Source: Raja brachyura
Lineage: Eukaryota
Assembly: GCA_963514005.1 (NCBI GenBank)
Contig: OY740787.1
Coordinates: forward strand, 22,258,001 to 22,322,000
Direction of reading: 5' to 3'
Length of the DNA stretch: 64,000 bases
Shown: positions 2,254 to 7,635 of the stretch, one piece after another
Numbering within the stretch: position 1 is the stretch's first letter
Layout: each line of letters starts with the position of its first letter
Translations under genes and position numbers: made by a program
The notes under the pieces: generated by a model
What the model saw: the letters and a program-made list of their open reading frames with translations, nothing else
Databases searched by the model: none
Told to the model about the DNA's origin: nothing

Positions 2254-2302
2254 ACAACTAACAAGTAATCGTCTTATTTCATTTCGGAGTCACGTGAGTG
2301 AC

Positions 2303-2338
2303 TTCGTGAAGAACCCGCCAGCACGCATGCGCGACATA
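2303..2338 (+). repeat. DIRS left inverted terminal repeat core
   Basis: ttcgtgaagaacccgccagcacgcatgcgcgacata is the exact reverse complement of 7527-7562. Confidence 0.95.
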
Positions 2339-2475
2339 TCGTCGCTCGCATTGCAGTCGACGGCTGGAGAGGAGCGCGGCTCGTCACCAGCCCTTCATAA
2401 GGGCCACTCAGGTAAGTACTAACAACCTTGAGTTGGTTGTTCTGTGTAAGTAATTGTGTTTTCTTCCACAGAAAC

Positions 2476-4242
2476 ATGGACAGCGGGAAAAATAAAGGCC
2501 GTAAAACTTCTACAAGGAGTTGTCGGCAACCCAACCCGGAGCCCCCCTCCACGGCAGGAGGACGGGCCGGGAAAAAGGCGCGCAAGCCGGGGAGCCCTGT
2601 ATTCACAGGATCCGGTTTACCGACGCAGCTATGCCCTAGCGGGGTACCTGCAGTACAAACAGTCGGTACAGCGCCGGAGCAGGTGCATCCTGACTCCATC
2701 TCGCTCTCACCCACTGGGTCATTTGCAGAGACGAGCAAGAGGGATTCGCGTGCTGCTGCACGGCCCTTCTCCCTGAGCCCTCTTGAAGGAGGCAGGGATG
2801 CAATTCCACTACCTAGCCCTTCGCGGGTTGAGGTCTCACCAGGAGCCACTAGGAAGTGGTCTGGTGAATCAGGCAGGCCCGAGTCCACTGGCAGACCAAG
2901 GAAGGCCAGTGTCGACTCACCACCCAGGGGGACCAGGAGGAGTCACAAGGGTGGAGCCTCGCCTAGGTCACCGCTTCCCCCGCTGGGGGCAGGTCGGGAC
3001 CGTACGCCGTCTGGGTCCAGATCAAGGACAGTCGGCAAGCCCGCGCGGACGTCGGGTCACCACGCTGCGGCGTCAGGTGCCGACCTCTCCCCACCCATGC
3101 CCTTCGAGGCAGCCGGGTCCAGCTCAGCGAAAAGGAGGCTCTTGAGCAGGTCCGCGCGGGAATCGCTCAGCTTCGCCGAGGCGGCTGGTAGCGACACATC
3201 ATCACAGTACCGATATTACCTCGACGAGGTACGGACTGCTGATCGGAGCCTCCGGAGTTCCTTCGGGCGCGAGGCCTCTTACCTCCCACACCCGCCCGAT
3301 GAAGGGCGCTTGGATCGTATGGAGAGGATATTGGAGCAAGTTCTTCTCAAACAGAAACAGGACACACACAGCTCCAGGGGACTCATGGATATATCCCCGT
3401 CCCCATCTATGGACAGCATAAGACCAGATGAGGAGGACATCCTGGTACATGCCCCAGCAGCACCTGAGGTCCCTCAGGAAGATCTGCTGGATGTGGCAGC
3501 CAAATTCGGGTTACCCATATCATCAGGACAACCCCTCAACATCAAACTGGCCGCAACCATAGATTACCTTACCAACCATCAATTGCAGGAGAAGGTCCTT
3601 GTGAAGGCCATGGAGAGACACAAGGCTCCAGGGAACTGCAATTCACTCCACGTGCCGATTGTGAACATGCCAATCTGGGGTAATATCAGCCCGGGCATCA
3701 GAGCGCAGGAAGTGAAACTGCAGAGGATTTTAAAATTACTTACGTCTGGGATCACCGCTTTTGCAAAGTCGGTAGATGGGGTTGATCTAAGCACCGAACA
3801 GGAGGATGCTCTAGCTCTGCTCTGCAATACGCAGTACGAGATCAACGCTTTCCGGAAGAGCATTATTAAACCTTCCTTGAATCCCAAATTTGCGGGACTA
3901 TGCAGAGCACCTCCTACCCCCCCACCTAGACAGCTGTTCGGGGAAGACCTCCCAAAGCAGGTCAAAGAGCTGGATGACCATGCGAAAACCATAGGTCTGA
4001 TGAGACCACATTTTGTGGCCAGACCTTCGGCCAAGAAGACACCTTACTTCAGGCCACGAGGTCAGACCGACAGGCCAACAAGGACCTACGTTCCGGCACC
4101 TCCTCAATATCAACAGCCTCCTCAGCCCAGGCCTTTTTTAGGGCTAGGCCCTCAGCGGCCAGCATGGAAGATGCGGATTCCGCACCAACCACGAAACCCA
4201 GCACCTCCACGTCCCACCAAAAATCCCAGGGACCGCCGATAA
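2476..4242 (+). CDS. DIRS ORF1 (Gag-like), intact, 588 aa from ATG 2476
   Basis: Open frame 2428-4242 with first ATG at 2476 (MDSGKNK). Low-complexity S/P/R-rich N-terminus. C-terminal region VPIVNMPIW...DALALL...RKSIIKPSLNPKF...LFGEDL is typical of DIRS ORF1. Confidence 0.85.
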   Translation: MDSGKNKGRKTSTRSCRQPNPEPPSTAGGRAGKKARKPGSPVFTGSGLPTQLCPSGVPAVQTVGTAPEQVHPDSISLSPTGSFAETSKRDSRAAARPFSLSPLEGGRDAIPLPSPSRVEVSPGATRKWSGESGRPESTGRPRKASVDSPPRGTRRSHKGGASPRSPLPPLGAGRDRTPSGSRSRTVGKPARTSGHHAAASGADLSPPMPFEAAGSSSAKRRLLSRSARESLSFAEAAGSDTSSQYRYYLDEVRTADRSLRSSFGREASYLPHPPDEGRLDRMERILEQVLLKQKQDTHSSRGLMDISPSPSMDSIRPDEEDILVHAPAAPEVPQEDLLDVAAKFGLPISSGQPLNIKLAATIDYLTNHQLQEKVLVKAMERHKAPGNCNSLHVPIVNMPIWGNISPGIRAQEVKLQRILKLLTSGITAFAKSVDGVDLSTEQEDALALLCNTQYEINAFRKSIIKPSLNPKFAGLCRAPPTPPPRQLFGEDLPKQVKELDDHAKTIGLMRPHFVARPSAKKTPYFRPRGQTDRPTRTYVPAPPQYQQPPQPRPFLGLGPQRPAWKMRIPHQPRNPAPPRPTKNPRDRR

Positions 4243-6173
4243 CCATGAAGGTAAGGGGGTCTGGATTCCATGCACTTGCATGTCTAACCTCACGAGTTGG
4301 GGGCAGATTACGGGGATTTAAGGAGGCTTGGGAAACCATCACTTCAGATGAGTTTATCTTGCAAAGTATTCAGGGTTATGAAATTGAGTTTATTCATGGC
4401 CAATTGCCTCCACCCCAGCATATGACGAATCACAAATTTGTACTTTCCAAAAAAGAATTGGCAGAAGGCTATGCTGAAATCTTGAGTTTACAAGACAAAG
4501 GTGTGATAGAACGAACCACACATGAACCAATTGAATTTGTGTCTAATATATTTACTAAAACTAAAAAAGACGGTGGATGCCGGGTCATTATAGATTTAAC
4601 TCACTTGAATACCTTTGTAAAATACACCCATTTCAAAATGGACACATTTGAAACAGCCAAATCTTTGATTTCGGAGGGCTGCTTCATGGCATGCATTGAT
4701 TTAAAAGATGCATACTATTCAGTATCCATTCGGAGACATCATAGGAAGTTCTTGAAGTTTACCTGGATGGATCAGCTTTGGCAATACAAAGCATTGCCCA
4801 ATGGGCTTACTACAGCCCCCAGACTGTTCACCAAACTACTCAAGCCAGTGTTATCTACACTGCGGAGACAAAATCATACGGTCATGGCCTATTTGGATGA
4901 CATTCTGATAATTGGGCACACTCTGGAATCAGCAGAGTTGGCGGTTTCAGCCACAGTGTAAATTTTTCAAAAAATGGGGTTTATAATCCATCCAGACAAA
5001 TCAAAGTTCCTCCCCGCACAGATCATGGACTACTTGGGGTTCACGATAGACTCCAATCGCATGATCACCACCATCCCAACTAACAAAGTTCGTGATGTGT
5101 TTCAAGCATGCAAGAACCTGGTCTGCGCCAGTATACCGTCTATCAGATTAACTGCCAGGGTAATTGGCAAAATTGTAGCAGTATTTCCAGCTGCTCAATA
5201 TGGACCTTTACACTATCAGAATTTACAAAGGTAAAAAATAACAGCATTAAAACTAAATGCTGGACATTATGATAGACCTATGCAGTTGCCGGTTAAGGCA
5301 AAACTTGAGTTACTATGGTGGATTGGCAATATCCATAACTCATTTAAACCCATCATTGTGCCTCGTCCAATGGTATACTTGCAAACAGATGCAAGCTCCC
5401 ATGGCTGGGGAGCTACGGACAACAACAACAGTTGTGGAGGTAGATGGGATTCACTTGAAGCTACTTTGTTGTTAGCACAAGGGATAAACTATTTGGAGAT
5501 GCTAGGAGCATTCCACGGACTAAGAGCCTATTGTTCAAACATGACTAACACTCATGTCCGTCTCCAAATAGACAATACCACTGCGGTGGCTTATCTGAAT
5601 CGTATGGGTGGTACCAGGTCAATTTCATGCAATGAATTGGCAAACACAATTTGGCTCTGGTGTATTCAACGGAATATTTGGATCTCAGCTACCTACTTGC
5701 CAGGTGAGCTCAATACAGTGGCGGACACCAGGTCACGGAAGTTCAATGACAACATCGAGTGGATGTTGAACCCCCAAATATTCACCAAAATTACAGCCAA
5801 ATTTGGTAAACCGGATATTAACCTTTTTGCGTCACGGTTGAACCATCAGGTACCAACATACGTATCATGGGAGCCAGATCCTGGGGCAATGGCGATGGAC
5901 GCATTCTCGCTAGACTGGGGGAAATGGTTCTTCTATGCCTTTCCTCCATTCTGCCTCATCAGTCGGGTATTGCGGAAAATCCAGCTCGATGCTGCCAAGG
6001 GCATCCTCATTATACCCGACTGGCCTACGCAATCATGGTATCCGGTGGTCCTTGGAATGATAAGTCAACCATGGGTCCTCTTAGAGGGTTGCCCACAATT
6101 GGTGACGAACCCTGCCACAGGGGAACCACACCCCTGCCATAGTCATTTGAATCTATTGGCTTGCAGGATCTGA
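4164..6173 (+). pseudogene. DIRS pol (reverse transcriptase - RNase H - adenine methyltransferase-like) with two in-frame TAA stops
   Basis: ORFs 4164-4961, 4974-5234 and 5280-6173 share one frame, broken by TAA at 4959-4961 and 5232-5234. RT motifs: IDLKDAY, LPNGL, YLDD (4890-4901), YLGF. RNase H: TDAS, INYLEM, DNTT, ADTRSR. MT-like: NLFAS, DAFSLDW, YAFPPF. Confidence 0.93.
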
Positions 6174-7150
6174 ACAGGCCACTACTTCAGTATGGTCTAT
6201 CTTCAATGACAATGGATACCATGGGAGCATCATGCAGGGAGTCCTCAAGACGGCAGTACTTATCGTACATCAGGAAATGGGAATCCTATTGTGGCCGCAT
6301 GGACGTTGCATATGACTCCGTCTCCATCACAGATGTGCTGGAATTTCTTGCGGGGCTACACCATGATCAACATCTCAGCTATAGTGCCATCAATAGCGCC
6401 AGGAGTGCGCTATCGTCCTACCTCAATATTGAGGTAGGATCCAATAAATTGGTCTCCAAACTTATGCGGGGGATATTTAATTCCAACCCGCCGAGGCCCC
6501 GTTACAACGTCACATGGGATATTGGCAAAGTGCTGACCCTGCTGAGAACATGGTCACCCATGACGGGGCTCGAATTGGACAAACTCACCCTAAAGGTGGT
6601 GATGTTGATGGCACTTACTTCAGCACAAAGGGTGCAAACGCTTCACAAGGCCAAGATCGACAGAATGATCTCTACCCCTGAACGGGTCACTTTCTTCATT
6701 GATGAATTGCTCAAGCAGCATAGACCTGGATTTACAGGGCTGCAGCTGGAGTTTCCAGCATACCCCGCTGATGCTAGGCTATGCATAGCCACCCATATCC
6801 GCCACTATATCAAAGTGACGAGGAAAATAAGGGGAATGGAGCAATACCTGTTCATCAGTCACAAAAAACCTCACCATAGAGTGACGGTGCAGACGATATC
6901 CCGATGGCTCAGGATCGTCTTGAACAAGGCAGGTATTGACACTGATGTTTTTAAATCCCATTCCACCAGGGCAGCATCAACATCGGCGGCAAAGGTCATG
7001 GAGGTGCCCATGGACCAGATACTTGCCACAGCGGGATGGGCCAGTGAAGCCACTTTTCAACGGTTTTACAACAAACCCGTCACCGTACCTGGAATGTTCG
7101 CAGGAGCCATGCTGGATGCAGGCCGAGAGCATACAGTTACCCCTCAGTGA
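6161..7150 (+). CDS. DIRS tyrosine recombinase (YR), intact
   Basis: 329-aa ORF. N-terminal SAM-like region (YSAINSARSALS), catalytic R (SAQRV), HSTR, AGW, and catalytic Y (FQRFYNK). Overlaps the pol stop. True start is uncertain (see findings). Confidence 0.92.
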   Translation: MQDLNRPLLQYGLSSMTMDTMGASCRESSRRQYLSYIRKWESYCGRMDVAYDSVSITDVLEFLAGLHHDQHLSYSAINSARSALSSYLNIEVGSNKLVSKLMRGIFNSNPPRPRYNVTWDIGKVLTLLRTWSPMTGLELDKLTLKVVMLMALTSAQRVQTLHKAKIDRMISTPERVTFFIDELLKQHRPGFTGLQLEFPAYPADARLCIATHIRHYIKVTRKIRGMEQYLFISHKKPHHRVTVQTISRWLRIVLNKAGIDTDVFKSHSTRAASTSAAKVMEVPMDQILATAGWASEATFQRFYNKPVTVPGMFAGAMLDAGREHTVTPQ

Positions 7151-7294
7151 GGGGCCTTTCTTGTTGTTATTAATAAATATTATTACTTTTTCAGAGAAAC
7201 AGGGACGGAAATTGATTACTGCTGTCCACCTTTTCAGTAGCGTGTGTGATAGCATGGACGTTGTCCAGGGCGTGAAATCACAGAAGCTTTGAAG

Positions 7295-7407
7295 TCTTCA
7301 CGAAATCACTCACGTGACTCCGAAATGAAATAGTAAGATTAAACGAGAACTTACCAGTTTGAAGTTTGATCTTTATTTTATGAGGAGTTGCGATGAGGGA
7401 TTTCGTG
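7295..7407 (+). repeat. DIRS internal complementary region (ICR)
   Basis: 7295-7332 is the reverse complement of 2275-2312 (1 mismatch). 7331-7407 is the exact reverse complement of 7557-7633. Confidence 0.95.
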
Positions 7408-7526
7408 CCCTCCGCTCCCAACCCTCGATCATAAAGTCAACTGGTAACTAGAGTCTCTTCAATCTTACTATAACAAGTCATTTCTTGGCTTGTTTTTTTC
7501 TGTGATTCCACACCGCGGCTTTGAAG

Positions 7527-7635
7527 TATGTCGCGCATGCGTGCTGGCGGGTTCTTCACGAAATCCCTCATCGCAACTCCTCATAAAATAAAGATCAAAC
7601 TTCAAACTGGTAAGTTCTCGTTTAATCTTACTATT
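7527..7635 (-). repeat. DIRS right ITR plus right-end extension
   Basis: ITR core 7527-7562, followed by an extension complementary to the ICR. Confidence 0.93.

Follow-up and report, generated by a model that had tools for sequence, protein, structure and literature searches.

Does a 60-nt stretch with the ends of a spliceosomal intron, lying in the leader of a retrotransposon, really act as an intron, and if so, how is it kept by an element that multiplies through reverse transcription? This is the question raised by an element in the 64-kb window (the whole stretch of DNA that was analysed) from Raja brachyura. The first-pass annotation had proposed a real intron, retained as it is the unspliced RNA that gets reverse-transcribed, with a donor that might serve all subgenomic mRNAs. 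We consider it rather probable that the stretch is a genuine, inefficiently spliced intron of the 5' UTR, that its donor is masked by an RNA hairpin, and that mostly unspliced RNA is reverse-transcribed.

The element that hosts the stretch is a young DIRS1-type tyrosine-recombinase (YR) retrotransposon (2276-7635, plus strand); its 30 best matches are 99.5-100% identical to it, which indicates a very young subfamily. The left terminus (2276-2338) starts with ATT, is inverted over 2295-2338 with respect to 7527-7570, and is complementary at its start to the internal complementary region (ICR, 7295-7407), which itself is complementary to both termini, the right one lying at 7527-7635. Between the termini are a gag-like ORF1 of 588 aa (2476-4242), a pol with reverse transcriptase (RT), RNase H and Dam-like methyltransferase in the -1 frame (4245-6173, with two premature stops in this copy), and a tyrosine recombinase ORF (6143-7150) that overlaps the end of pol. 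Pfam detected the RT (RVT_1, 3e-14), the Dam-like domain (0.0022, below the Pfam cut-off) and the recombinase (Phage_integrase, 1e-7), and gave no match for RNase H or ORF1 in this element. An RT/RNase H pol with a Dam-like methyltransferase, a recombinase ORF overlapping pol, and inverted termini with a right extension and an ICR are the marks by which DIRS1-like elements are told; the identity of an LTR element was dropped on account of the RT, Dam-like and phage-integrase domains, the inverted termini and the ICR. The left-terminus motifs TCACGTGA and GCATGCGC (2290-2332) are fixed in all sampled families by construction of the search pattern; we take them to be E-box-like and NRF1-like, respectively, and likely promoter motifs. 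A short interspersed repeat occurs twice, head to head, at 2098-2212, 60 nt upstream of the element; the two copies make up an inverted repeat of 56 bp whose spacer is 3 nt. The same general plan, with gag, RT/RH/MT and YR genes, inverted termini, a right extension, an ICR and ATT ends, is given for DIRS1-like elements in the accessible part of PMC3266345; unlike the elements described there, the present one has a conserved leader intron with a predicted masked donor and an intron that would remove pol.

In this copy, the splice signals lie where the first-pass annotation had placed them, namely CAG at 2409-2411, GTAAGT at 2412-2417 and the acceptor GTGTTTTCTTCCACAG at 2456-2471. The length of 60 nt (2412-2471, plus strand) was likewise borne out, with the AG at 2471 standing just before AAACATGG (2472-2479), that is, AAAC ATG G. 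The ATG at 2476 is the first one past the terminal repeat region and opens ORF1. The stretch lies within the 5' UTR and contains no ATG, so that its retention leaves gag unbroken. Within the window, CAGGTAAGT is found only once. As for the features of a U2-type intron, a GT donor in consensus is conserved among relatives (76/84), and a polypyrimidine tract with YAG is present in this copy and lost in one clade. The best branch-point-like motif, TACTAAC at 2416-2422, is presumably too near the leader donor to serve it, given the geometry of the spliceosome; inspection by eye alone gave weaker candidates near 2450. Contigs were available from four sequencing runs of unstated kind, which look like genomic DNA, with depth peaks at the termini. 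Those of three genomic-DNA-like runs read through 2390-2910 unspliced, and no 2411-2472 joint was present among the joints listed, an outcome that speaks neither for nor against splicing.

Many animal genomes hold DIRS1 elements in large numbers. In this genome, a pattern built from the terminal-repeat motifs only, and hence independent of the splice sites, matched 11,181 left ends (control 0). The first 90 of these in genome order, minus six tandem duplicates (L101-L106), gave an unbiased sample of 84 copies. The duplicates belong to a tandem array (L099-L106) of units of about 10.6 kb with two DIRS elements per unit; at two other loci (L009 and L155), the flanks show left ends adjoining ICR-like or terminus-like sequence of other DIRS copies. 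A leader donor of the form NG/GTRRG stands 55-105 nt past the terminal-repeat motif in 76/84 copies. In 22 control windows, such a donor was found in a mean of 5.9 and a maximum of 13 copies out of 84, so that the leader donor occurs beyond chance. Among the eight copies without it, six have a lost or rearranged leader and two carry near-consensus variants, as judged by eye. The families bearing the donor are diverse, the C-terminal part of their gag being 34-99% identical to that of this copy, and their donors vary within the consensus (GTAAG, GTGAG, GTAGG). Two other comparisons were kept out of these counts: the presence of GT and AG in 30/30 nearest copies, dropped as evidence of conservation as these copies are 99.5-100% identical, and a set of 1,850 matches, excluded because its pattern contains the splice sites.

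The acceptor is less conserved than the donor. A pyrimidine-rich YAG follows the donor in 53 of the 76 copies, against a control mean of 27 (range 14-41), and in 31 of the 53 an ATG comes within 30 nt past it. In these 53 copies, the intron is 18-80 nt long (median 55); in 18 of them it does not exceed 43 nt, and in one it is only 18 nt. One RT-bearing clade (L149, L166, L175, L192 and L199; support 100/100) has kept its donors and lost the pyrimidine-rich acceptor. The conservation of GT and AG among family copies, which had been suggested as a check, is thus strong for the donor and partial for the acceptor. Six families in which no RT was detected (L109, L117, L152, L169, L184 and L201) keep donor, hairpin and acceptor, with donor and acceptor only 18-41 nt apart, a spacing too short for normal splicing.

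These patterns give some room to a different account, in which donor and hairpin form the functional unit, either as a docking site where U1 counters early polyadenylation or aids transcription, or as a packaging structure, or both; the acceptor would then be optional and splicing incidental. We hold this to be a minority possibility, albeit one of some weight. It is favoured by donors that persist where the acceptor is gone or too near for splicing, and by the many families with two tandem donors that have one ACTTAC arm in common. The pyrimidine tract and AG in front of the gag ATG in 53/76 copies, with the ATG within 30 nt in 31, are harder to accommodate if the acceptor is dispensable.

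Masking of the donor, on which our preferred reading of an inefficiently spliced intron depends, is suggested by a near-complement that lies 3' of the donor in most families. In this copy, the end of exon 1 together with the donor (CTCAG/GT) faces the intronic arm ACCTTGAG in a predicted RNA hairpin at 2402-2438 (plus strand). Other families show CTTAGGT with ACCTTAAG; GCGTAAGT with ACTTACGC as against GCGTGAGT with CTCACGC; and AGGTA with TACCT as against AGGTG with CACCT. In 38 representative leaders, the predicted pairing probability of the donor region was 0.63, against 0.43 in shuffles, and the minimum free energy was -13.3, against -9.2 kcal/mol, the control being each leader with its downstream 30 nt shuffled 60 times at the mononucleotide level. 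Individually, the hairpin reached p<0.05 in only 17 of these 38 representatives, which are related by descent; that of this copy alone is not significant (p 0.08 and 0.16). The fold of the whole leader has z = -2.5.

In an alignment of 36 leaders, column conservation was 0.93 for the donor and 0.91 for the 3' arm, against 0.50 for the intervening loop. The named helix is 79% paired, a value that 0/500 shuffles attained, with alignment rows that are related by descent. Its covariation score was reached in 2/500 shuffles, but a slide by one column equals this score; double changes in the helix showed no excess over shuffles, and RNAalifold recovered no consensus hairpin from the leaders. Covariation support is modest, and a hairpin that hides the donor is likely on these predictions. 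A masked donor would be a poor dock for U1 unless the structure opens, a difficulty for the account based on the donor and hairpin as a U1-binding unit. In many families, L108, L110, L111, L118, L174 and L192 among them, the leader has two donors in tandem, spaced by about 20 nt, and between them a single ACTTAC arm that is able to pair with either, which may be a structural switch.

If splicing of the leader takes place at all, its traces may be sought in genomic copies. With the exact flanks of this subfamily, 53 copies with the intron and none without it were found; a wider flank pattern returned 999 copies, out of which 997 have the full stretch and two are shortened. One of the two owes its length to an internal deletion; in the second (G000:C13:21876567, minus strand), a full-length element, exon 1 is joined exactly to CAGGAACATGG. 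Of the 24 relatives closest to this copy in gag sequence, 23 have an intron ending in YCAG/CAG, a tandem acceptor, and hence the loss in this copy runs from the GT to the first AG. This copy is likely to be a retrotransposed spliced RNA. There are 3 nt of microhomology at its joint, which is one out of 15 possible deletions of this kind, and one out of 1,023 breakpoint pairs, when these are counted in the window's sequence, so that the copy could have arisen by deletion at the DNA level; the exact loss is therefore moderate evidence, from a single event. It does count against the view that the acceptor is optional. This copy did not amplify. A search with the end of exon 1 gave 1,491 copies in which GT follows and 21 in which it does not, the latter being 20 point mutants and the one joint to gag; among the 21, none has exon 1 joined to a more distant acceptor. 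Two other apparent deletions (L249 and L250) turned out to be intact copies matched by chance, and the 77 matches besides these consisted mostly of unrelated sequence.

The proposal of a real intron whose unspliced RNA is copied is thus upheld in its main lines, by the conserved signals, the retention in 997/999 copies and the one exact GT-AG loss, and the leader intron is probably real. Intron-less genomic copies, which the first-pass annotation had proposed to look for, amount to this one loss, with 53 against 0 in the subfamily itself. The counts support copies being made almost only from intron-retaining RNA. One may also ask if the motifs are kept for a role at the DNA level, as an internal promoter or as a hairpin of the single-stranded cDNA, and merely resemble splice sites, with the exact losses being microhomology deletions. 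It is in keeping with this that the cDNA of DIRS is single-stranded (PMC7192593, accessible part), that the 5'-UTR intron of Penelope overlaps its promoter (PMC8557442, likewise in part), and that there are 3-4 nt of microhomology at both joints, the one above and that at pol described below. Nevertheless, such a role appears improbable, as the donor varies within the splice consensus (GTAAG, GTGAG, GTAGG) and is followed by a polypyrimidine tract and AG, and as the joint at pol was predicted before the search, out of about 7,300 deletions that microhomology of at least 3 nt would allow.

The latter joint comes from a second predicted intron. Directly past the gag stop, the sequence reads ATG AAG/GTAAGG, with the GT at 4251, and the predicted intron AAG/GTAAGG...TTGCAG (4251-6166, plus strand, phase 0 to 0) would remove pol and join the start of the pol frame to the recombinase exon (6167-7150). 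The second donor is present in 34 of the 39 RT-bearing unbiased copies, and an AG stands exactly before the recombinase core (6166) in 33/37; donor and acceptor are in frame, and 15/37 copies have no Met within the first 30 recombinase residues. The acceptor is at the same place in two of the five distant metagenome elements that cover the site; the metagenome scan gave nine short contigs, none with a leader. The joint of the 4251 donor to the recombinase was predicted first and then searched for in the genome, which gave 110 matches; 82 of the 100 listed have the exact joint, by hand count. Pol is precisely absent in 14/14 joint copies checked, and the leader intron is kept in 8/8. Twelve of the 14 pol-less copies stand at several places in the recombinase tree, yet all share one foreign 5' segment, so the pol-less copies may stem from a single event. 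The joint pattern adapted to other clades found no pol-less joint. The pol-less copies (L281-L288 and L234-L247) carry about 1 kb of additional repeated foreign sequence inside gag.

Just upstream, the heptamer T TTT TTA (4134-4140, plus strand) lies in the gag frame and is predicted to act as a -1 frameshift site into the pol frame; we take it to resemble the frameshift site of HIV-1. The form T6[AG] is found in 25 of the 34 copies with the second donor, also where the following G is lost. This region matters for the earlier suggestion of one leader donor for all subgenomic mRNAs. On that view the donor would supply the messages of gag, pol and recombinase alike, and TTTTTTAG at 4141 would be the acceptor for pol; in this clade, TTTTTTAG is indeed followed by an ATG in the pol frame at 4164. 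However, the heptamer persists in L135, L145 and L146, which have TTTTTTAT and hence no AG, the ATG is replaced by GTG or TTG in other families, and for the recombinase there is a separate in-frame donor at 4251 (34/39) as well as a genomic joint. No leader exon joined to a downstream acceptor, the recombinase included, was found among genomic copies, a weak negative in that even the joint to gag was seen just once. The retroviral arrangement of one leader donor joined to several acceptors was thus not found among genomic joints, with the same weakness of that negative, and we give a shared leader donor very little credence.

We return to the leader intron as a short, poorly used intron. Transcription would begin in the left terminus, and the donor would pair with an arm 10-25 nt downstream, limiting its use by U1 and the spliceosome, as would the very short intron (median 55 nt). 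A minority of the RNA would be spliced to a gag mRNA with a shorter leader and would rarely be copied, either as splicing is rare or as a leader structure that is required in cis loses its 3' arm by splicing. The unspliced RNA would be the genome. Gag could be read from spliced or unspliced RNA, the latter because the intron lies in the UTR; Pol would come from the -1 frameshift at T TTT TTA, and the recombinase, or a Gag-recombinase, from the second, independent intron that removes pol. The amplification of pol-less copies that keep the leader, against the single leader-less copy that was a dead end, hints at a possible cis signal for copying within the leader intron. On a broader and more tentative view, which we would not yet bet on, vertebrate DIRS1 elements might run a retrovirus-like RNA programme. 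In it, the hairpin would both hide the leader donor and form part of the packaging or reverse-transcription signal; leader-spliced RNA would serve as mRNA only and be excluded from copying; and the -1 frameshift and the pol-removing intron would switch between Gag-Pol and Gag-recombinase. If true, this would tell where the cis-acting signal for genome selection lies in DIRS elements.

Goodwin and Poulter, in 2004, reportedly mentioned that some YR retrotransposons contain spliceosomal introns, and Repbase annotations and the papers of these authors may already note introns such as the present ones. In the accessible portions of the DIRS texts, the words 'intron' and 'splic' are absent from PMC3266345, PMC3783388 and PMC9210276, and 'intron' from PMC6681497; neither a natural leader intron nor a masked donor of DIRS1 elements is described in the literature searched, including the available parts of PMC9341512, PMC12477816 and PMC5718144. 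When an intron was engineered into Dictyostelium DIRS-1, its splicing in cDNA was incomplete, and the authors consider whether splicing factors compete with those of retrotransposition at the 5' end (PMC7192593, in part). Penelope elements have a short (75 bp) 5'-UTR intron that is kept after retrotransposition and whose significance is called unknown; they are of an unrelated class (GIY-YIG, pseudo-LTR), and the accessible text mentions no hairpin masking the donor (PMC8557442). According to the portions available, RNA structure weakens the leader donor in HIV-1 (SD hairpin, PMC4974535) and in MLV (5' splice-site stem-loop, PMC2794156), which preserves a supply of unspliced genome RNA, as the predicted structure may do here; that donor, however, serves many distant acceptors, whereas here the acceptor is 60 nt away and the recombinase has a separate donor. 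In the Arabidopsis Copia element EVD, as far as the available text goes, a retained intron and U1 binding balance gag mRNA against genome RNA, with the intron at the gag-protease border and coupled to early termination, unlike the present 5'-UTR intron (PMC5580714). U1 at the EVD donor suppresses premature termination, and the same is reported for HIV-1 (PMC12789967, in part), which favours the account of donor and hairpin as a U1-docking unit. The intron-based reading would combine a known kind of element with known tricks, namely a Penelope-like retained 5'-UTR intron and a retrovirus-like masked donor, a combination that was not found described for DIRS1.

The finding bears on the expression of the three DIRS1 ORFs and on the choice of the RNA to be copied, and it provides exact predicted junctions, 2411-2472 and 4250-6167, and a predicted structure of 37 nt. 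Structure-attenuated splice donors would be a trait on which these elements have converged with retroviruses and Copia. By implication, thousands of insertions carry strong splice donors and acceptors, which could affect host transcripts.

A further donor-like motif is seen at the other end of the element. In the right terminus (7587-7615), a donor consensus, G/GTAAGT (CTG/GTAAGT at 7607-7615), comes about 20 nt after the AATAAA at 7587, and this pair of motifs is present in 35/60 unbiased loci; it could control polyadenylation there. The complement of this donor in the ICR (7347-7358) reads ACTTACCAG, which is presumably close to the 5' end of U1. In distant elements, ACTTACCTG or CAGGTAAGT is found as well (L311:1513, L312:1560 and L318:2509).
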